From IMG/VR virus record IMGVR_UViG_2713897075_000011: a stretch of DNA of 7,230 bases; one strand, 5' to 3'. The position numbers and the translations under genes are program-made. The notes beneath the pieces are model-generated. The model saw only the letters and a program-made list of their open reading frames with translations. It made no database searches and had not been told where the DNA came from. How positions within the stretch are numbered: position 1 is the first letter of the stretch; every line of letters begins with the position of its first letter. Source of the stretch: a virus (lineage: Duplodnaviria; Heunggongvirae; Uroviricota; Caudoviricetes). This document shows, in pieces, positions 1 through 7,230 of this stretch.

Positions 1-138
1 GGTGTAAGTGAACTGCAGTTGCCATGTTTTACGGCAGTGAGAGCAGAGATAGCGCTGATGTCCGGCGGTGCTTTTGCCGTTACGCACCACCCCGTCAGTA
101 GCTGAACAGGAGGGACAGCTGATAGAAACAGAAGCCAC
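1..138 (-). CDS. insA: IS1 InsA, first 46 codons only (GTG start at 138; gene runs off the window)
   Basis: Minus-strand frame from GTG at 138-136 translates [46 protein letters not shown], matching the InsA N-terminus as I recall it. Confidence 0.8.
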
Positions 139-193
139 TGGAGCACCTCAAAAACACCATCATACACTAAATCAGTAAGTTGGCAGCATCACC
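1..193 (-). mobile_element. IS1, partial copy; its terminal inverted repeat lies at 171-193 and the element continues beyond the window start
   Basis: Reverse complement of 1-193 reads GGTGATGCTGCCAACTTACTGATTTAGTGTATGATGGTGTTTTTGAGGTGCTCCAGTGGCTTCTGTTTCTATCAGCTGTCC..., which I recognise from memory as the IS1 end (terminal inverted repeat GGTGATGCTGCCAACTTACTGAT) followed by the start of insA. Confidence 0.9.
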
Positions 194-871
194 AAAACAG
201 CATAACATAAACGTGGTAATCGTATTTTCAATTTCAGGCTGCAATCGCTTTAACTCCAGCGCCGGACGATGCTGTCGATTACTGGAAGCAACCGCCCCCG
301 CCATCTCTTGCGCCGGATTGTAATCAATTAACCCGCTTTGCACTGCATAACGCATGATGGCCGTGGTGCGCTGTTGAAGGCGGGAAGCCACTTCAAGACG
401 TCCGGATTTCTCCACGGCCTTAATAGGAATTAACAGATCGCGGGTGCCTAGTTCAGCAATGTTGCGAGCACCAATTGCCGGGAAGATATTGTCCTCCAGG
501 CTCTTTTTTACACGATTAGCATGATCTTCCGACCATTTTTGGTTGGTTACGAGCCACTCTCTGGCAACCTTCTCGAAAGTAATAATCTCTTTCGCCTGCT
601 CTTCTTTCACAGCACGCTTATGTTCACGAGGATCGATACCAGCAGCTACCAGCTTTCTGGCCTCTTCCCTTTTCTTCCGCGCATCCGCCAGCGAAACATC
701 CGGGTAAACACCGAACGCCATCAAATGTTGTTTACCGCCAAAACGGAAACGAAATCGCCAATACTTTGAACCGCCAGGTTTTACAAGTAAGGACATGCCG
801 TCGCCGTCAACAAGTGAATACTCTTTCTCCTCAGGTTTCGCAGAGCGAACTTTAGTATCCGTTAGGGCCAT
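194..871 (-). pseudogene. int: P4-family tyrosine integrase, N-terminal ~226 codons only; 3' part replaced by IS1
   Basis: ORF-track frame 167-949 (minus). Likely true start is the ATG at 871-869, preceded by GGAAGGAAG. Translation MALTDTKVRSAKPEEKEYSLVDGDGMSLLVKPGGSKYWRFRFRFGGKQHLMAFGVYPDVSLADARKKREEARK... is the conserved N-terminal arm-binding/SAM-like region of P4-type integrases. The frame runs straight into the IS1 end at 193 (last residues GDAANLLI are IS1-encoded) and stops at 167. No catalytic domain is present; full-length family members are roughly 400+ aa. Confidence 0.85.
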
Positions 872-897
872 AATGGTCTTCCTTCCATTGGTATCTC

Positions 898-949
898 GTG
901 AGTATACAAGCAATATCGAATCGGCAAATATACTCATTAGTATACTCAC
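898..949. repeat. 10-bp perfect inverted repeat GTGAGTATAC (898-907) / GTATACTCAC (940-949), 32-bp spacer, in the int 5' region
   Basis: Seen directly. TATACTCA also occurs as a direct repeat at 929-936 and 941-948. Position just upstream of the int start suggests an operator or recombinase-binding role; function not shown by sequence. Confidence 0.5.
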
Positions 950-1034
950 AAGCCTGTTGATGTGGGTTGAGTCAGGTTGACTTCAGTTGAGGAGAAAAGC
1001 TGGAAAAGCCTTGTGTGGCGCGGATTTCAGGCAT

Positions 1035-1058
1035 AAAAAAAGACCTCAGTTGAGGTCT
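1035..1058 (-). terminator. Candidate intrinsic terminator read on the minus strand (8-bp-arm palindrome AGACCTCA-gt-TGAGGTCT followed by a U run on the minus strand)
   Basis: Plus strand AAAAAAA-AGACCTCAGTTGAGGTCT at 1035-1058; on the minus strand the stem is followed by UUUUUU. It would insulate int from read-through coming from the alpha/crr side. The plus-strand tail (TATTTACAT) is weak. Confidence 0.45.
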
Positions 1059-1071
1059 ATTTACATACTTT

Positions 1072-1091
1072 TGGTGCGAAGGCCGGACTCA
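1072..1091 (-). other. Candidate att core: ~20 bp resembling the 3' end of a tRNA-Leu (leuX-type) gene, tRNA sense on the minus strand
   Basis: Reverse complement of 1072-1094 is TTTGAGTCCGGCCTTCGCACCA, close to the tRNA-Leu 3' end ...TTCGAGTCCGGCCTTCGGCACCA as I recall it (about 21 of 23 positions). No T-arm or D-arm sequence follows upstream, so this is a core copy, not a tRNA gene. P4-type integrases target the 3' end of tRNA-Leu (established). Confidence 0.55.
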
Positions 1092-1145
1092 AATTACAAC
1101 TTAAAATGTTAAATATAAAGAATTTATTTACCACAACTCATTAAA

Positions 1146-1167
1146 GTGCCCCCATTTGTGCCCCCAT
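1146..1167. repeat. Tandem direct repeat GTGCCCCCAT x2 (12-bp register) beside the att core
   Basis: Seen directly: GTGCCCCCAT at 1146-1155 and 1158-1167. Candidate arm-type protein-binding sites. Confidence 0.5.
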
Positions 1168-1234
1168 CATTTTTTAACCCCTTTCAAACGACAACACATT
1201 GATAAGAAAGATTAATAACTTCAAAACATGATCT

Positions 1235-1267
1235 CCGGTTTGGATCCGTGCTACGGATCCAAACCGG
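1235..1267. repeat. Perfect palindrome with 14-bp arms, CCGGTTTGGATCCG-tgcta-CGGATCCAAACCGG
   Basis: Seen directly. Left arm 1235-1248, loop 1249-1253, right arm 1254-1267. Contains two GGATCC motifs. No flanking U run on either strand, so not a typical terminator. Confidence 0.8.
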
Positions 1268-1307
1268 AAGAATGAAGAACCTAAAAAAAACTTTTTTTAC
1301 GGAAAAC

Positions 1308-1398
1308 TGTTCACACTGTTCACTCGCCATTATTTGTCTTTAATTTCAATGCGATATGCAGTGAACAGTCCGTGAACAGTGAACACTTTACTGTTCAC
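1308..1398. repeat. crr-like iteron cluster: six copies of the heptamer TGTTCAC / GTGAACA in both orientations
   Basis: TGTTCAC at 1308-1314, 1317-1323, 1392-1398; GTGAACA at 1361-1367, 1372-1378, 1379-1385. Preceded by an A8-C-T7 tract (1283-1299). Matches the alpha-binding type I iteron (TGTTCACC-like) of P4 ori/crr as I recall it; position just downstream of alpha is where P4 crr lies. Confidence 0.75.
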
Positions 1399-1415
1399 TT
1401 TCCGGGATTTCAGGT

Positions 1416-1440
1416 AAAAAAAGACCGGCTGATGCCGGTC
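1416..1440 (-). terminator. Rho-independent terminator of the primase-helicase gene
   Basis: On the minus strand, 8 nt after the stop at 1449-1451: stem GACCGGC, loop AUCA, stem GCCGGUC, then UUUUUUU (plus strand AAAAAAA-GACCGGC-TGAT-GCCGGTC). Confidence 0.8.
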
Positions 1441-1448
1441 CGGGTAGG

Positions 1449-3782
1449 TTATGTCGCGGTGGTTTCGTCGCACCGGGGCAGCCAGTCGGCGTTGCTTTCC
1501 TCCCTGAGCGCAAGGTTCGTCTGCATCCCCTGATTTGTTCGCCGCCTGGCGTAATTCAGCCCGTACTCTTTCAGCATCGATGACAGCCCTTTGCCGAACA
1601 TGGTCAGGCTGAGAGTGTTCTTGTAGCCGTGCGCCTCCATGTAAACCAGATAGGCGTGATACAGGTACAGGCGCGGCTGTCGCGGGATGATATTCGCATT
1701 CCCCATGTACATACCGTCAGGCTCGGGCAGCGCCTCCAGATAGCCACAAAAATCGAATGTCGGGTCAGCGTCGCGTTTGATGCTGAGTGCCTCGTCGGAG
1801 TTCTGCTGCGACTGGAGCAGTGTTCGCGCGGTCATCGGGTCGCTGAACGTCTGCATAAGCTGGCGCACGATGACGGCCAGCTCCCGGGCGATTTTATCTT
1901 TCAGCGTCGGGTCACGCTCTTCCGGGGCAATCTGTTCCGGGAAGTGCATTATCACCCGGCGACGTGACACCCCGCCGCTGCGGTCGGTGAAGCGCATCGG
2001 ATTGTTGTTTACGGCCAGTATCACCGCCGGAATATGGGTGGAGTACGCATCGCGGTATTTCGGGTCAACGGAGACCGCATCCCCGCCGGTAATGGCCTTG
2101 AGTCCTGCCCCGTCACCGCTCCATTTTTCCTGGTCAGGCAGACGTATCAGCGAGAAGCCAATCAGCGCCGCGCGTTCGCGGGGGGATTCCAGCGTCTCGA
2201 TGGTGGCCGACGTGGCGTTATCTTCTCCGGCGAGCATGGTCGCAATTTCGGCCAGAATACTTTTCCCGCTGCCACCGGGACCGGTCACTTCGAGGAAGAG
2301 CTGCCAGTCATAACGGTTCGCCAGCACCATAAACAGCGCGGCGAGTATCACATCCCGTTTATCGGCGCGCGAACCGGCAGCGCGGTCGAGCCAGCGCCAG
2401 AAATTCGGCGCGTGCGTCTCCAGCGTTTCCCCCGCCACCGGCGGGGTGAAATCCACGTCGCACAGCGTGCGCAGCCAGTGCGTTTTGCTGTGCGGGCTGA
2501 ATATATTGCTTTTGGTATCAAGCACGCCGTTGCGAAAGCCAATCAGCCGCCGTGCCGGGGCGTCCTGCTGCGGAATAATCAGTTTCAGGGTGTCCACCAC
2601 CGAGGCAATTTTCCCCGATGAGAACGGGGCGCGCAGACGCTGGAACAGCCCGGCCACGTCGCGCGCAAAGTCCGACGGCGGAATGATTTTCCATATTCCC
2701 GCCTCATAGCGGGACAGGAGCTGCCCGTTCGCATCCACCGCCAGCGCTTCGCCGTAATGCTCATGCACCCGCATGGCTTTCTCACTGGTGCTCATGGCGG
2801 TAAATTCCGCCTCGCTCATGGTAGAGAAAGGGCTTTCAGCCGGTGGCCGGATGGCGTCATACATGGCTTTACGCATGGCCTCCCCGCCGTGCTGTGTATA
2901 CGCATCATTCCAGTCACCGAACACCGGCGGCAGGGCGACCACGCCCTCGCAGGACTCTGCGGCCGCAGACGCTTTGGTCTGGCCGTCGCCGTTAAGGTCG
3001 CGGTCGGCGGCAATGACAATCCGACAGGCCGGGAATTTGTGACGGGCAAGGCTCGCCAGAGAAAGGAGGTTCACGGAGGACAGCGCCACCATGACGGTTT
3101 CGCCGGTCAGGTGATGCACGGTGAGCGCGGTCGCGTAGCCCTCCGCTATCCACAGCCGTTTTCCCGCCTCTTTTTTCCCGTCGAGAATATGACACGCCCC
3201 TTTCACCTGACCGCCTTTCAGGGTGCGCTTGAGACCGTCCGCGTTAATGAGCTGGACGTTAACCAGTTCGCCGCTATCGTCATACAGCGGGACAACTAAA
3301 TCACCGGCGCGGTACGTCACACCGCCGGTTTTATGCAGGGTGGTGAGCGTCAGACATTCCCGGCCGGGGAAGCCCTTGCGGGTGAGGTAGGCATTGCCGG
3401 TGGCCGGGCGGGCTTTCTCCATCAGTTTTACGGCCAGCGCGGCGGCGGCTTTGCGGTCGGCCTCCGTTTCAGCCTCTGCGGCCACAGTCACCGCCGGGGA
3501 AACCGGCGGCAGGTTGCCGGTCACGGCGTTCACCTTCCCGGCCGCCTCTGACGGGGTCACGCCGAACACTTTCTCAACCAGTTTCAGACCGTCCCCCGCG
3601 CCGCACTGGTTACAGAACCACGTCCCGCGTCCCTCTTTATCGTCAAAGCGAAAGCGGTCGGAGCCGCCACACACCGGACAGGCCTGATGGCGGTTTTTAA
3701 TCACCTTTACACCCAGCGCCGGGAGAATGCGCGGCCAGTGGCCGCACGCCTGTTTGACGGTGTCCGTTACGTTCATTTTCAT
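1449..3782 (-). CDS. P4 alpha-type bifunctional primase-helicase (replication initiator), 777 aa
   Basis: ORF track. N-terminal zinc-binding motif CPVCGGSDRFRFDDKEGRGTWFCNQCG typical of phage primases; central Walker A TGPGGSGKS; same length as P4 alpha (777 aa, from memory) and N-terminus MKMNVT. SD GAGGGAG lies 9 nt upstream of the ATG at 3782. Iteron clusters flank the gene about 5 kb apart. Confidence 0.93.
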   Translation of the reverse strand: MKMNVTDTVKQACGHWPRILPALGVKVIKNRHQACPVCGGSDRFRFDDKEGRGTWFCNQCGAGDGLKLVEKVFGVTPSEAAGKVNAVTGNLPPVSPAVTVAAEAETEADRKAAAALAVKLMEKARPATGNAYLTRKGFPGRECLTLTTLHKTGGVTYRAGDLVVPLYDDSGELVNVQLINADGLKRTLKGGQVKGACHILDGKKEAGKRLWIAEGYATALTVHHLTGETVMVALSSVNLLSLASLARHKFPACRIVIAADRDLNGDGQTKASAAAESCEGVVALPPVFGDWNDAYTQHGGEAMRKAMYDAIRPPAESPFSTMSEAEFTAMSTSEKAMRVHEHYGEALAVDANGQLLSRYEAGIWKIIPPSDFARDVAGLFQRLRAPFSSGKIASVVDTLKLIIPQQDAPARRLIGFRNGVLDTKSNIFSPHSKTHWLRTLCDVDFTPPVAGETLETHAPNFWRWLDRAAGSRADKRDVILAALFMVLANRYDWQLFLEVTGPGGSGKSILAEIATMLAGEDNATSATIETLESPRERAALIGFSLIRLPDQEKWSGDGAGLKAITGGDAVSVDPKYRDAYSTHIPAVILAVNNNPMRFTDRSGGVSRRRVIMHFPEQIAPEERDPTLKDKIARELAVIVRQLMQTFSDPMTARTLLQSQQNSDEALSIKRDADPTFDFCGYLEALPEPDGMYMGNANIIPRQPRLYLYHAYLVYMEAHGYKNTLSLTMFGKGLSSMLKEYGLNYARRRTNQGMQTNLALREESNADWLPRCDETTAT

Positions 3783-3796
3783 TGTTATTTTCTCCC

Positions 3797-4117
3797 TCAG
3801 TGCAGCGCCGGTGCGGTGATATGACGGGCGCAGAGTTCATCCATCACGGTCAGCCCGAGAAAAGACAGCGACGGCGCGGCCTTGAGTGGTCCGGCTTCCA
3901 TTAAATCTTCGAGCAGGGCACAGGCAATCTGACGGCCTTTTTCCTCGCCGTGCTGGCGCAGGTAGAAGCCCTCCAGCTCGGTCGCAATGGCGCTTTCCAG
4001 CGTACTGAGCGTGAGCTGCGGGTAGCGGTGCTGACGTTCGCACAGGGTCAGCCAGGCACAGGCGACCGCCCGGCGATAGAGCGCAGCGCGCAGAACGGGA
4101 GATAATGCGGTTTTCAT
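3797..4117 (-). CDS. Hypothetical protein, 106 aa ([16 protein letters not shown]...), directly upstream of the primase gene
   Basis: Internal start of ORF-track frame 3797-4306. ATG at 4117-4115 is preceded by GGGAGGG and overlaps the stop of the upstream gene as ATGA (translational coupling). The N-terminal extension of the track ORF has no SD. Stop is 12 nt before the primase SD/start region. No family recognised. Confidence 0.6.
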
Positions 4118-4374
4118 ACACTGCCCTCCCCGGTCAGCCAGCGCTGATTGCAGCGGTCGACCACACCATCGAGCCGGGCAGTCATGAGGTAAATCACCGA
4201 GGTGAGCTGTAGCGGCTGCGCCGGATTGTGGCGCAAAGAGGTGCAGTCCTGCACCTGCATCAGGTCGCCGACAAGCTGGCCGACATTGCGAAGATGTTCG
4301 AGACATTCAAGGTCTGCCCGGCTGATGGTGGGCTGGTTTATATTCTGTGGCCGTTCCGTACTGTTAACAGGCAT
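4114..4374 (-). CDS. Hypothetical protein, 86 aa ([28 protein letters not shown]...)
   Basis: ORF-track frame 4114-4419. Preferred start is the ATG at 4374-4372, preceded by AGGAGA with a 7-nt spacer; the upstream ATG at 4419 lacks an SD. The stop overlaps the next start (ATGA). No family recognised. Confidence 0.6.
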
Positions 4375-4393
4375 TATTTCGTCTCCTGAGGAC

Positions 4394-4419
4394 GTGCGTA
4401 TCCCTGCGCAGATACGCAC
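4394..4419. promoter_or_regulatory. Inverted repeat GTGCGTATC-N8-GATACGCAC (9-bp arms) in the 70-bp gap between the 149-aa and 86-aa genes
   Basis: Seen directly. On the plus strand it is followed by ATTTTATTTTT (terminator-like for plus-strand or antisense transcripts). On the minus strand it sits just 5' of the SD of the 86-aa gene with no U tail (possible operator or processing/stability hairpin). Confidence 0.45.
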
Positions 4420-4445
4420 ATTTTATTTTTGGGTGTCGTTTTTAA

Positions 4446-4895
4446 TTACAGATAATGGCGGTAGCTGTTATCCGGTTTTATTTCCGTTTCCGGCCTGAAA
4501 TTATTCCGCCATTTATGCGCCACCGGCGCCGGACGTTTAACCGGGGGAATATCATCAGGATAGTTATCGATATTCCGCGCCCGGTATTGCTGTAATGCCG
4601 GGTCGGCCGCTATTTCGCGTAATACGACGTGGCGGTTTTCAGGGTTACGTTTAAATACATCGGGATGCTCACAGGTAAAGTCCCGCAAAAAACGGCCGAG
4701 CGGAATCTCTGCCATGCGGCCACCGGCAATAATACGAATGAGGATGGTGTAGGTGCGCCGGTACGGGTTCCAGACCAGCCCCGGACAGCGGTACGGCATA
4801 TCCCACGGAATACCGTCGGCCAGCACGCCCGACACCACCACGTCAGGAAATCCTGTACAGCGATATATTTCACCCGGCTGAGGGAAATCAAACAT
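4446..4895 (-). CDS. Hypothetical protein, 149 aa ([39 protein letters not shown]...)
   Basis: ORF-track frame 4446-4937. Preferred start ATG at 4895-4893, preceded by GGAGGGGAG; it overlaps the stop of the upstream 99-aa gene (ATGTTTGA). No family recognised. Sits where P4 has orf151 (from memory, by position only). Confidence 0.65.
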   Translation of the reverse strand: MFDFPQPGEIYRCTGFPDVVVSGVLADGIPWDMPYRCPGLVWNPYRRTYTILIRIIAGGRMAEIPLGRFLRDFTCEHPDVFKRNPENRHVVLREIAADPALQQYRARNIDNYPDDIPPVKRPAPVAHKWRNNFRPETEIKPDNSYRHYL

Positions 4896-5187
4896 GGTGC
4901 TCCCCTCCGTTTCCTGACGTCGTGGCGAGAAAGTCACGGCACAGACCTTTGGCTTTTAGCTCTTCCAGGACGTAGCTGACGTCCTCATGGATATAACTAA
5001 AAATCTGCGGCAGGTATAGCTGGTGTAAACCGTTCAGTTCACGGCGCAGCAAATCTCCACCGATGAACTGCGAGACGGCGCTGGCGCGATTGAGTTTATG
5101 GTACGCCTCTATGCTGAGGTGTTCCTGCATGGGGTTAAGGTCATCACGACGCGCTGAGACGGTCTGAGGGGTGTTTTTATTAGGCAT
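4888..5187 (-). CDS. Hypothetical protein, 99 aa ([32 protein letters not shown]...)
   Basis: Internal start of ORF-track frame 4888-5433. ATG at 5187-5185 preceded by GAGGT with a 5-nt spacer; the start overlaps the last codons of the 65-aa gene (ATGCCTAA). The upstream part of the track ORF lies in the non-coding leader. No family recognised. Confidence 0.6.
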
Positions 5188-5377
5188 GTGATACCTCAAC
5201 AACCGGCAGACGGGCGGCAAGGGAAAGCACGTATTCCCGGACAAGGGTGCGGCGGGCGGCCAGCTCGTCACCGGCCACGGTGCGGAGCATACAGATACGG
5301 GGTTTACGGTCTGCGCGACGGACGGCGGCAAACACAAAGACAAACTGCGGGTGTGACGGGGTGAGGGTCGTAGCCAT
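5180..5377 (-). CDS. Hypothetical small basic protein, 65 aa ([65 protein letters not shown]); first cistron after the leader
   Basis: ATG at 5377-5375 preceded by a strong SD AAGGAGG with an 8-nt spacer. It is the 3' third of ORF-track frame 5180-5779, whose upstream 134 codons are W/C/R-rich, span a terminator and overlap the regulator gene, so only the nested 65-codon gene is called. Sits where P4 has kil (by position only). Confidence 0.55.
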
Positions 5378-5434
5378 AGGGGCAACCTCCTTGAAGTAGC
5401 GGTTATTGCCACCACCGGAGTTCCTACACTCATG

Positions 5435-5513
5435 GGTGGTAGCCCGGACGGGGGTAGGAATACCGGCCTTCAAGGAAACCGGCCAGCCCGAGGGCTGCCC
5501 CGCCCGGACCACC
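5435..5513 (-). ncRNA. Candidate structured regulatory RNA (~79 nt, GC-rich three-way fold) in the leader; possible P4 CI-like immunity RNA
   Basis: Minus-strand sequence GGUGGUCCGGGCGGGGCAGCCCUCGGGCUGGCCGGUUUCCUUGAAGGCCGGUAUUCCUACCCCCGUCCGGGCUACCACC. The ends pair (GGUGGU/ACCACC and CCGGGCGGGG/CCCCGUCCGG with one G-U), enclosing two hairpins (CAGCC..GGCUG and GGCCGG..GGCCGG). Boxes CCUUGAAGG and UUCCUAC are complementary to motifs found twice nearby. Folding was done by eye only. Confidence 0.35.
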
Positions 5514-5580
5514 ATTATCTGATACAGGCCAGTGTGAAACCACCACAGACCAAAAATAAGGTGTGCCTGAGCAACGACGT

Positions 5581-5603
5581 AAAAAAAGACGCATGGCGCG
5601 TCT
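5581..5603 (-). terminator. Candidate intrinsic terminator in the leader downstream of the AlpA/Vis-like gene
   Basis: On the minus strand: stem AGACGC, loop GCCAU, stem GCGUCU, then UUUUUU (plus strand AAAAAAA-GACGC-ATGGC-GCGTCT). The stem is short (6 bp). Confidence 0.5.
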
Positions 5604-5730
5604 GGTGTCGCCTTGAAGTAACACGGGTTCCTACGCCCGGCTGTCGATTTTGCGACAGCGACAAAACTGTACCAGGAAACACACAACGGATGCAAGCCAG
5701 AAAAAGGGACTTTGTGAGAATGGCTCTGAT

Positions 5731-5997
5731 TCATGCGTCGTATTTCCGGTTGCGGTGCGCGACACGTTCTGCCATCCACGCCGTGATTTCAGACTGTAGC
5801 CAGGCGACATTTTTACCCCCTAGGGAAACCTGCGCCGGGAAAGCATTGCGGGCAATTAAATCGTAGAGCGTGGAACGGGACAGGCCGCACTGATGAATGA
5901 CTTCCGGGAGACGTAAAAAACGTTCCTGAGCCGGGGCTGAAACCGGCATCGGGTGCGTGCCAGTGGAGGAAGATGGTACTGATGAAACTGTGTGCAT
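5731..5997 (-). CDS. alpA: AlpA/Vis-family phage transcriptional regulator / excision accessory protein, 88 aa
   Basis: ORF track. Translation contains the AlpA-type helix-turn-helix [52 protein letters not shown] at 5997 is preceded by GAGGT with a 6-nt spacer. Same size and position as P4 vis (first gene of the leftward late transcript), from memory. Confidence 0.85.
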
Positions 5998-5999
5998 AA

Positions 6000-6056
6000 C
6001 GCTACCTCGTTAATATCCGCAGAGATCCGGACGTGTCCGTCCGGTATCAGGTAGCG
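6000..6056 (-). promoter_or_regulatory. Nested inverted repeats immediately upstream of the AlpA/Vis-like gene and overlapping its SD
   Basis: Outer arms CGCTACCT (6000-6007, includes the complement of the SD) and AGGTAGCG (6049-6056); inner hairpin CCGGACG-tgtc-CGTCCGG (6027-6044). Could sequester the SD in the mRNA or act as an operator. Confidence 0.45.
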
Positions 6057-6099
6057 CTCTATTTTGTGAATATTTTTTCTCAATGCAACAGGGGGAAAT

Positions 6100-6117
6100 T
6101 GTACAAAGCACGGGACA
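6100..6117 (-). promoter_or_regulatory. TGT-N12-ACA dyad upstream of the AlpA/Vis-like gene; candidate helper-activated late promoter (PLL-like)
   Basis: TGT at 6100-6102 and ACA at 6115-6117 with exactly 12 bp between. This dyad is the Ogr/Delta activator site centred near -55 in P2/P4 late promoters (established). The dyad centre is ~111 bp upstream of the ATG at 5997. Confidence 0.4.
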
Positions 6118-6149
6118 ACGGGTGCTGTTTTTTTACTCAAGACCATTTA

Positions 6150-6180
6150 AAGGCACTGGAAGGAGTTATAAGGCACTGGA
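6150..6180. repeat. 11-bp direct repeat AAGGCACTGGA x2 with 20-bp period
   Basis: Seen directly at 6150-6160 and 6170-6180, between the divergent promoters and the ori iterons. Confidence 0.5.
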
Positions 6181-6276
6181 GATTTCAAAAGTGAAATGCA
6201 AATTGATTTAATCACCATAAGAGCATGAATTAATAGGATATACCGCATAAAATTTACATTCGGGATGTTCAGACCA

Positions 6277-6378
6277 GTGAACAGTAGTGAACAGTTGGTG
6301 AACACTTCTTTCTCAACTGTTCACTCTTTAATTTATTGTTTTACTTATATTTTTATACTGAGTGAACAGTAGTGAATA
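6277..6378. repeat. ori-like iteron cluster with an AT-rich unwinding stretch
   Basis: GTGAACA at 6277-6283, 6287-6293, 6298-6304, 6362-6368; TGTTCAC at 6318-6324; degenerate GTGAATA at 6372-6378. AT-rich stretch 6325-6360 lies between the copies. Same heptamer as the cluster at 1308-1398, about 5 kb away, as for P4 ori and crr (about 4.5 kb apart, from memory). Confidence 0.75.
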
Positions 6379-6456
6379 GTTATTAGTAAAAAAACAAACA
6401 GAGTGAGGGGTTTACCTGCGACCTTTCTCTGGCCAGCCGGGTTTTTAAGTCCTGTT

Positions 6457-6548: not shown

Positions 6549-7230
6549 ATGAAACCAGATTTGTTTACCGCAGTAATGAAAACCATCGGCAGCACGCAGG
6601 ATGAGAACATCCGCACGGCCATTGACAGCGCACTGGATACCCTTAACGAGAAAGCAAACCAGAACGCAGAGGCCACGATAAATAACGCGCTTGAGGCATT
6701 CAGCAAGGCCAAATCCGCGCACACGGAAAACATGCTGAAACTGAATGATATTGATGCGGCTATTACCCGCAGCGAGAAAGAGCGTCAGAACGCCCTGAAT
6801 GAAAGTGCCGAAGCCGAACAGAACTGGCGTACCCGTTTTCGCGAACTGCGCGGCATGATGACCCCGGAACTGAAAGCCGAACACAGTCAGCGAGTGGCCG
6901 GTCGGGAGCTGGCGGAGGAATTCACCGCCCTGATTGATGAACTCAACGATGATAAGGCCAGTACCATGCTGTCCGCCTGTACATCAGGAGATAAGTACGT
7001 CGGCACGCATTTTACGGTGTTCTCTGCCTACTCCCGGAATGAGTGGGCGACCGTGATGAAAGACATCCCTCCCTCACTGGTGCGCGCATTTGCGTTACGT
7101 CTGCGTGAACTCGAAATGAAGGGGGAAGAACACCCTCACAACATTCTCATTCAGGAACTGGGGGAGAATGTACTGGCGCAAAGCAGGTATTACACATTCA
7201 ACATGGCGCAGGTGTCAACGACGGATGAAA
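6549..7230 (+). CDS. 5' portion (227 codons, no stop within window) of the first gene of the rightward operon; Sid-like by position only
   Basis: Not in the ORF track because it runs off the window. My translation from ATG 6549: MKPDLFTAVMKTIGSTQDENIRTAIDSALDTLNEKANQNAEATINNALEAFSKAKSAHTENMLKLNDIDAAITRSEKERQNALNESAEAEQNWRTRFRELRGMM... continuous to the window end. Composition is strongly helical (A/E/K/L-rich). Divergent from the AlpA/Vis-like gene across ori, as sid is in P4; P4 Sid is about 244 aa (from memory). Weak SD. Confidence 0.6.
   Translation, partial: MKPDLFTAVMKTIGSTQDENIRTAIDSALDTLNEKANQNAEATINNALEAFSKAKSAHTENMLKLNDIDAAITRSEKERQNALNESAEAEQNWRTRFRELRGMMTPELKAEHSQRVAGRELAEEFTALIDELNDDKASTMLSACTSGDKYVGTHFTVFSAYSRNEWATVMKDIPPSLVRAFALRLRELEMKGEEHPHNILIQELGENVLAQSRYYTFNMAQVSTTDE

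Follow-up and report, generated by a model that had tools for sequence, protein, structure and literature searches.

The probable kil-epsilon-orf151 segment of the left operon in a P4-like satellite prophage, and the linkage of orf151 to epsilon

We think that the three overlapping genes at positions 4446-5377 of the window (the whole stretch of 7,230 nucleotides that was analysed) are very probably kil, epsilon and orf151 from the left operon (immunity, early functions and replication) of a P4-like satellite prophage, and that they work as set out for P4 itself. The whole 932 bp are colinear with phage P4 (X51522 / NC_001609), with 74.2% nucleotide identity over 100% of the length, and the alignment spans P4 ORF151, P4 epsilon and what used to be annotated as "cI gene product (AA 1-137)". 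At the protein level (blastp), the first gene is 89% identical over 65/65 residues to P4 Kil, which corresponds to the last 65 residues of the old "cI ORF137" (137 aa), the second is 69% identical to P4 epsilon over its full length, and the third is 64% identical to P4 ORF151, again over its full length (64.9% over 100% of the query by tblastn). The position of epsilon between kil and orf151 is that of the P4-like left operon, as judged by synteny with NC_001609. A sequence-only reading of this DNA had guessed from position that the genes might be those of P4, and had proposed that they were either diverged helper-manipulation genes or replacement cargo. Comparison of the proteins with P4 Kil, epsilon and ORF151 gives clear full-length homology for all three, and thus bears out both the positional guess and the first of these two proposals. 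The same homology takes away the novelty that had been claimed: judged by sequence, the cassette is ordinary P4 left-operon core content, already known biology and not a new cassette.

The features of the window to which the argument refers are the following:

5731-5997, minus strand: alpA/vis homolog, 88 aa, corresponding to P4 ORF88/Vis (64% identity, blastp; Pfam PF05930, 5.8e-19)
5180-5734, minus strand: eta homolog, 184 aa, a long in-frame ORF that contains kil and runs over the isrK/SeqA and CI RNA genes
5582-5659, minus strand: isrK / P4 SeqA-like leader RNA (Rfam RF01394, 74.2 bits)
5432-5519, minus strand: CI (C4-family) immunity antisense RNA (Rfam RF01695, full-length model match, 84.5 bits, E 4e-16)
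5383-5396, minus strand: seqC, the 14-nt target of the CI loop, CUUCAAGGAGGUUG, which includes the kil SD AAGGAGG (5392..5386)
5180-5377, minus strand: kil, 65 aa (NF033153; 89% identity to P4 Kil; dN/dS 0.05-0.34)
4888-5187, minus strand: epsilon, 99 aa, of the helper derepression protein/antirepressor family, overlapping kil by 8 nt
4446-4895, minus strand: orf151 homolog, 149 aa, overlapping epsilon by 8 nt (phrog_10748; dN/dS 0.04-0.32)
4114-4374, minus strand: 86-aa ORF of the "75-aa" family, overlapping the cnr start as ATGA (phrog_10110, 4.9e-40)
3797-4117, minus strand: cnr/ORF106, 106 aa, copy-number control (89% identity to P4 ORF106/Cnr, blastp; Pfam DUF5375, 4.8e-63)
1449-3782, minus strand: alpha primase-helicase, 777 aa, the last gene of the operon, with Zn-ribbon primase, Toprim, D5_N and Pox_D5 domains (84% identity to P4 alpha, blastp)

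The description of three minus-strand ORFs of 65, 99 and 149 residues, overlapping and each with its own SD, holds in coordinates and in sizes. All three start with ATG and all three SD sites are purine-rich: AAGGAGG for the first gene (5377..5180), GAGG for the second (5187..4888) and GGAGGGGAG for the third (4895..4446). Both junctions, ATGCCTAA between the first and second genes and ATGTTTGA between the second and third, are 8-nt start/stop overlaps, and P4 itself has two 8-nt overlaps, GTGCGTAA and ATGTTTGA. Full-length homologs can be counted in dozens for each of the three proteins, and those of the second and third are spread over the Enterobacterales (Escherichia, Salmonella, Klebsiella, Citrobacter, Enterobacter, Serratia, Edwardsiella, Hafnia, Buttiauxella and Kluyvera). 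Purifying selection is observed throughout: in pairwise Nei-Gojobori comparisons of the window with P4 and three further elements (L007, L012 and L028), in which dS reaches 1-1.9, dN/dS is 0.05-0.34 for kil, 0.13-0.32 for epsilon and 0.04-0.32 for orf151. Because these values all lie within 0.04-0.34, we take the three ORFs to be real genes.

The cassette had been called unrecognised, with no motif or family that could be assigned, and this does not survive a search of current libraries, which already recognise all three genes. Kil matches NCBIfam NF033153, "host cell division inhibitor Icd-like", over residues 12-59 (71.2 bits for a cut-off of 25), as well as the C-terminus of phrog_6928; epsilon matches Pfam PF25738, "Derepression protein family", over positions 1-95/95 (9.1e-47, 157.2 bits for a cut-off of 27); and ORF151 matches phrog_10748 over positions 1-151/151 (6e-75). 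In identical DNA, RefSeq labels the three products Icd-like protein, derepression protein and hypothetical protein, and homologs of the second and third genes carry the names "Derepression protein" and "hypothetical protein". A search by sequence for relatives of solved structure, made with Kil/Eta, epsilon and ORF151, gave only noise (E >= 0.29).

These results also bear on the second proposal of the sequence-only reading, replacement cargo, which could for instance be an anti-phage defence or toxin-antitoxin cassette inserted at the site where P4 has kil, epsilon and orf151. One could cite for this idea the position under immunity control, the toxicity of Kil in P4, and the defence hotspots that P4-like elements carry elsewhere, between int and psu (PMC8628076). 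However, the known P4 hotspot is precisely at that other location (PMC8628076), the PADLOC-DB defence HMMs give no match to any of the three proteins at E <= 1, and all three are full-length homologs of P4 genes, and we regard cargo as very improbable.

The remark that the first gene lies under a candidate immunity leader proved correct, the C4/CI RNA and the isrK RNA both being found by Rfam directly upstream of it (the gathering scores are 45 for RF01695 and 50 for RF01394). An intrinsic-terminator-like hairpin, detected by a terminator scan at 5603..5587, closes the isrK element, and within the isrK/SeqA match, at 5618..5611, there is a copy of seqA, CTTCAAGG. This octamer occurs three times in the window, a number reached in 0 of 200 shuffles. 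The apical specificity loop of CI (seqB, 5481..5468, CGGUUUCCUUGAAG) is complementary to seqC over 14 nt, if G-U pairs are allowed, and the ATG of kil follows at 5377. The CI/C4 RNA lies 55 nt upstream of kil, and kil is the first translated gene 3' of this RNA, with a ribosome-binding site that is complementary to the RNA loop. In P4, the CI RNA is processed from the leader and pairs with seqA and seqC, leading to premature termination, and IsrK is a structural homolog of P4 SeqA (PMC4825925). By analogy, the pairing of the CI loop with the kil SD is the immunity mechanism of P4, the termination step being one that we infer from P4. A scan of positions 3700-6400 for sigma-70 promoters found none.

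The pairing is also visible in the comparison of elements, where we observe that seqA, the CI loop and seqC covary three ways among six aligned elements while the flanks are constant, with four specificity types:

window, L007 and L004: seqA/seqC core CTTCAAGG, CI loop CCTTGAAG
P4: seqA/seqC core TTCACAGG, CI loop CCTGTGAA
L012: seqA/seqC core TAACTATG, CI loop CATAGTTA
L028: seqA/seqC core TCCATCG, CI loop CGATGGA

The immunity specificity of the window, CTTCAAGG, is therefore different from that of P4, TTCACAGG, and triplets of seqA, CI loop and seqC provide a simple typing of immunity specificities in P4-like elements.

Two other systems are worth comparing. In the immI operon of P1 and P7 (c4 - icd - ant), as here, a leader-processed RNA of the C4 family pairs with the ribosome-binding region of a small Icd-type inhibitor, a likeness backed in the window by the Rfam C4 and NCBIfam Icd-like matches. 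Translation of the Icd-type gene in P1 and P7 is required for expression of the downstream antirepressor. The two cases differ in that epsilon is unrelated to P1 Ant, and in that the operon of the satellite runs on into replication genes. In the isrK-orf45-anrP region of Gifsy-1 in Salmonella, a leader RNA of the IsrK/SeqA type that carries a terminator likewise precedes a processed RNA and a translationally coupled small ORF (PMC4825925); there, however, the leader sRNA acts in trans as an activator of translation and has an antiterminator under its control, whereas the architecture of the window is that of P4 immunity.

By family membership, Kil is an Icd-like inhibitor of host cell division, and its killing activity is known from P4 (PMC10111431). 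In the window it is the internally initiated C-terminus of the 184-aa eta ORF (5734..5180), and thus has the same position as in P4, where Kil is a truncated form of Eta and translation of eta prevents termination (PMC10111431). The likeness extends to the 89% identity over 65 aa, to the nesting of kil in a longer eta ORF, to the CI RNA upstream with a loop that pairs with the kil SD, and to the coupling of eta with the gene before it, since the eta ATG overlaps the stop of alpA/vis (ORF88) as ATGA in the window and in P4. Eta is 58% identical to its P4 counterpart and shorter (184 aa against 199 aa), because P4, like L028, has an insertion of 15 codons between the SeqA and CI regions. The codons of eta upstream of the kil ATG behave quite differently from kil itself, with a dN/dS of 0.87-1.32 and a dS lowered to 0.13-0.46. 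A ratio close to 1 combined with a low dS fits selection on the RNA or DNA and on the act of translation, and suggests that the peptide encoded upstream of kil is not itself constrained. The nested eta ORF, with its 184 codons, both RNAs and the coupling to alpA, had been overlooked in the earlier reading; in identical E. coli DNA, RefSeq places a 555-nt "Icd-like" CDS on this long ORF.

The working that we propose follows from P4. The operon would read, on the minus strand, alpA/vis, then eta (with the isrK/SeqA RNA, the CI RNA and kil within it), epsilon, orf151, the 75-aa family gene, cnr and alpha. In an immune prophage, the leader transcript would be processed to CI RNA, whose loop would base-pair in the leader (at seqA) and over the kil SD (at seqC); kil would then remain untranslated, and premature termination (Rho-dependent, according to the P4 literature) would keep epsilon, orf151, cnr and alpha silent. 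Upon infection or activation, transcripts that start upstream of alpA would allow ribosomes to couple from alpA to eta and to read across the CI region, and this translation of eta would, as inferred from work on P4, suppress termination and permit expression of the downstream genes. The Icd-like Kil would then block host cell division, its killing activity being again taken from P4, while epsilon would derepress a P2-like helper prophage by binding its C repressor. ORF151, translationally coupled to epsilon, would most likely take part in this same step of helper exploitation, although its role is speculative. The homology, the synteny, the overlaps and the two RNA genes on which this scheme is built are all observed in the window.

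For epsilon, the full-length match to PF25738, the 69% identity, the flanking genes and the 8-nt overlaps are all shared with P4, whereas the window protein is slightly longer (99 aa against 95 aa) and its allele is diverged. The E protein of P4 derepresses the P2 prophage by binding to its C repressor, and the sos mutation T67I in P2 C abolishes this binding (PMC2995052); in an engineered P4 system, inducible epsilon switches on P2 late functions (PMC12239096). We predict that the epsilon of the window is likewise a helper antirepressor, which would bind C as P4 E does. AF2 models it as a hairpin of two helices (residues 26-51 and 55-79, pLDDT 73.5), the termini being disordered; for this model, Foldseek against the PDB returned no informative neighbour and nothing with E < 2.

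A difficulty of nomenclature should be mentioned here. A census of P4-like satellites used Pfam PF10554 as its "epsilon" marker (PMC8628076). In the window this family (Phage_ASH) matches Eta, over residues 22-131 (4.1e-32), and it matches Eta as well in P4 and in an element that has no epsilon, while true epsilon matches only PF25738. This accounts for the fact that only cnr and the 75-aa family were listed by the census as frequent "between epsilon and alpha" (PMC8628076). If PF10554 tags the eta/CI-RNA region, true epsilon and orf151 would be accessory and not universal core, and statements on epsilon as a core gene of P4-like elements need to be read again, many such elements being without a true epsilon.

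The distribution of the two genes is consistent with this. When loci were anchored on Eta (a single genome for each species, to which three E. coli elements were added), 38 carried both eta and cnr; 34 of these have neither epsilon nor orf151, four have both, and none has only one (Fisher's exact test, P ~1.4e-5 for 38 loci, uncorrected for phylogeny). In the 34 loci without the pair, the order is eta, 75-aa gene, cnr, with a gap of ~230 bp, and the 75-aa family gene is present in 37 of the 38. This family was found in 61% of elements in the census and is absent from P4 (PMC8628076). Among the viral contigs of IMG/VR, orf151 accompanies epsilon in 80/80 epsilon-anchored loci and epsilon accompanies orf151 in 79/79 ORF151-anchored loci (159/159 in total, in two sets that share many contigs and in which many loci are near-identical P4-type alleles), and 158 of the 159 show the 8-nt overlap. 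Epsilon and orf151 are thus a strictly linked pair that is absent from many P4-like elements.

Several loci were examined and set aside. One, H51, looked like an epsilon without ORF151, and was rejected when an internal deletion, by which epsilon has become fused to alpha, turned out to explain it. Three proteins were considered as Rosetta-stone fusions: P0042 (epsilon-ORF151, 244 aa) is a P4 sequence with a frameshift near the junction, and P0068 and P0070 are ORF151-alpha deletion fusions. All three are taken to be laboratory derivatives or assembly artefacts, and were not used as evidence of linkage.

In complete E. coli genomes, the module is found over at least 80% of its length in 976/5,426, always on the chromosome. 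Nearly all of these 976 carry the P4-type allele, which is ~72% identical in nucleotides to the epsilon and orf151 of the window, and the allele of the window itself, at >= 95% identity, is present in only 17 of the 5,426.

About 35 years have passed since P4 was sequenced, and to our knowledge ORF151 has yet to be characterised; a literature search on orf151 and satellites found no paper. The window protein is like that of P4 in its position, in its identity (64% at full length) and in its ATGTTTGA overlap with epsilon, and differs in length (149 aa against 151 aa) and in a tail that is variable save for the terminal PDNSYRHYL. The family as a whole has a conserved N-terminal domain of ~105 aa, in which Cys37 and Cys75 are nearly invariant, followed by this variable C-terminal tail with its conserved end. 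The predicted core resembles, weakly, an SH3/Tudor-like barrel. Searches of Pfam, NCBIfam and PADLOC gave no match for ORF151, the PDB contains no relative detectable by sequence, and a profile search of 1.84 billion representative proteins retrieved only 29, each of them a member of the ORF151 family or a piece of one.

The strict linkage to epsilon, together with translational coupling, nevertheless leads to a concrete and testable hypothesis on ORF151, which is that it acts with epsilon, or right after it, in helper exploitation; this is speculative. A stronger version, which we put forward tentatively and consider possible rather than probable, is that ORF151 is the obligate functional partner of epsilon, that helper takeover is a two-protein affair, and that true epsilon and orf151 form an accessory module defining a subclass of P4-like elements. 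If this were true, the picture of epsilon acting alone, held since the 1990s, would be incomplete; ORF151 could serve as a co-antirepressor, could lend specificity or stability, or could be a second effector directed at the helper, and the effector would combine an SH3/Tudor-like core with a conserved C-terminal docking motif. One comparison calls for caution on the idea that ORF151 acts with epsilon. Between L028 and the window, the flanking genes are 94-99% identical and ORF151 is 99% identical, but identity falls to 77% in the central helices of epsilon, which means that the core of epsilon can be exchanged without a change in ORF151. It is conceivable, though again we would not bet on it, that ORF151 is independent of epsilon and that their linkage reflects shared inheritance only. 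Under that explanation ORF151 might be, to give doubtful examples, an RNA-polymerase- or nucleic-acid-binding factor of the Tudor/SH3-like type, or an anti-defence or superinfection-exclusion protein.

We finally come to the element itself. Taking int, psu, delta, sid, alpA, "epsilon" (PF10554) and alpha as the core set of P4-like satellites, one finds alpA, PF10554 (on Eta) and alpha in the window, and psu, delta and sid in the flanks of an identical E. coli locus. Fourteen complete E. coli chromosomes match the window at 100% identity, among them those of the ETEC-type strains O6:H16 2014EL-1346-6 and TW10598. In strain 99-3165, the locus begins with a tRNA-Leu, a truncated integrase, psu, delta, an IS100 and a sid-like ORF, continues with alpA, eta, epsilon, orf151, the 86-aa gene, cnr and alpha, and ends with a second truncated integrase, an IS1 and BREX remnants. 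In the window, ARAGORN found no tRNA, and the single copy of the P4 ori type-1 repeat TGTTCACC, at 6297-6304, has no significance. The window's integrase fragment (871..230) retains arm-binding and central domains and lacks a catalytic one. This, with the damage to the locus, indicates that the satellite has decayed and is probably immobile, with its left operon intact.

A more pessimistic interpretation has to be taken seriously, in which the genes are intact relics without a current role, in a defective and immobile P4-like remnant whose cassette is silent or decaying. We see this as a real possibility, if not the one that we favour. It can draw on the truncated integrase and the missing int-psu hotspot of the identical E. 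coli locus, on the IS100 that splits delta from sid, on the IS1 and second partial integrase after alpha, on the rarity of the allele (the 17 genomes mentioned above), and on the related element in which epsilon has been fused to alpha by deletion. Against it, all seven ORFs of the left operon, both RNAs and the seqA/B/C pairing are intact, the family-wide dN/dS is low (though this measures the family rather than the copy in the window), and the sequence is the same, without a single difference, in the 14 genomes.

Surveys of P4-like satellites take Pfam PF10554 (Phage_ASH) as their 'epsilon' marker (PMC8628076). What this profile matches is Eta, in its N-terminal and central portions (5378-5734 on the minus strand of the window, 8366-8767 in P4 and 4144-4695 in L004, another P4-like element), that is, the stretch lying over the CI and SeqA/isrK RNAs. 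The 95-99-aa epsilon proteins have no PF10554 match and are recognised by PF25738 only. Since PF10554 matches Eta and not epsilon, 'epsilon' in surveys of this type is a tag for eta.

The eta codons located 5' of the kil start (5378-5734, minus strand) have a dN/dS of 0.87-1.32 with a low dS (0.13-0.46), in contrast to kil, for which dN/dS is 0.05-0.34. What is conserved as the 'Ash protein family' is probably held constant by constraint on the RNA or DNA, the act of translation being more important than the peptide it yields.

An alignment of six P4-like elements reveals a three-way covariation of seqA (the leader copy), the CI antisense RNA loop and seqC (the target covering the kil SD), at window positions 5611-5618, 5468-5481 and 5383-5396, respectively, on the minus strand. 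It defines at least four immunity specificities among the six elements (CTTCAAGG, TTCACAGG, TAACTATG and TCCATCG), and such sets could serve for the typing of satellite immunity groups. In vis, kil, orf151, the 86-aa gene, cnr and alpha, two P4-like elements, L028 and L029, share 94-99% identity with the window. Their epsilon (6593-6892), by contrast, is only 77% identical to that of the window (4888-5187), the differences being limited to the central helical hairpin (approximately residues 18-73), and their CI loop specificity is unlike the window's. By this sequence comparison L028 and L029 are mosaic elements, and the combination of near-identical flanks with a divergent epsilon core and CI loop suggests that different alleles of the antirepressor core and of immunity have been exchanged.

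In an alignment of the ORF151 family (window 4446-4895), an N-terminal domain of about 105 aa is conserved, with Cys37 and Cys75 nearly invariant. It is followed by a variable, predicted-disordered tail and, at the C-terminal end, by a conserved motif, PDNSYRHYL, which resembles a short linear docking motif. Public data also contain a 244-aa epsilon-ORF151 frameshift fusion (P0042) and cases of ORF151 fused to the alpha C-terminus (P0068 and P0070), and E. coli SRY206 carries a natural epsilon'-'alpha deletion (L043, 3493-4310). These fusion ORFs look like artefacts of assembly, remains of decaying elements or P4 derivatives made in the laboratory.

Two further features lie between orf151 and cnr:
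4114-4374, minus strand: 86-aa ORF (phrog_10110, '75-aa' family), overlapping the cnr start
4394-4419: hairpin with a 9-bp stem (GTGCGTATC...GATACGCAC), in the 71-nt gap from the orf151 stop to the 86-aa ORF start

The 86-aa ORF has a counterpart in 37 of the 38 Eta-anchored loci that also have cnr; P4 lacks the ORF and has only a 21-codon remnant (MPYQLMQPARNAVICHREKSK). The hairpin sequence is kept in P4, and a T-run follows it on the plus strand only; a role in RNA processing or regulation is possible.

Finally, the element in which these genes reside is a P4-like prophage in decay. The two ends of the window (1-949 and 6549-7230) contain:
Window start: IS1 end (RefSeq annotation)
871..230, minus strand: truncated integrase without catalytic domain
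From 6549, plus strand: sid-like ORF running past the window end

The whole locus was also viewed in E. coli 99-3165 (L003): in the flanking DNA, IS100 separates delta from sid, the element's own integrase, in truncated form, adjoins tRNA-Leu, and a BREX remnant is found further out.
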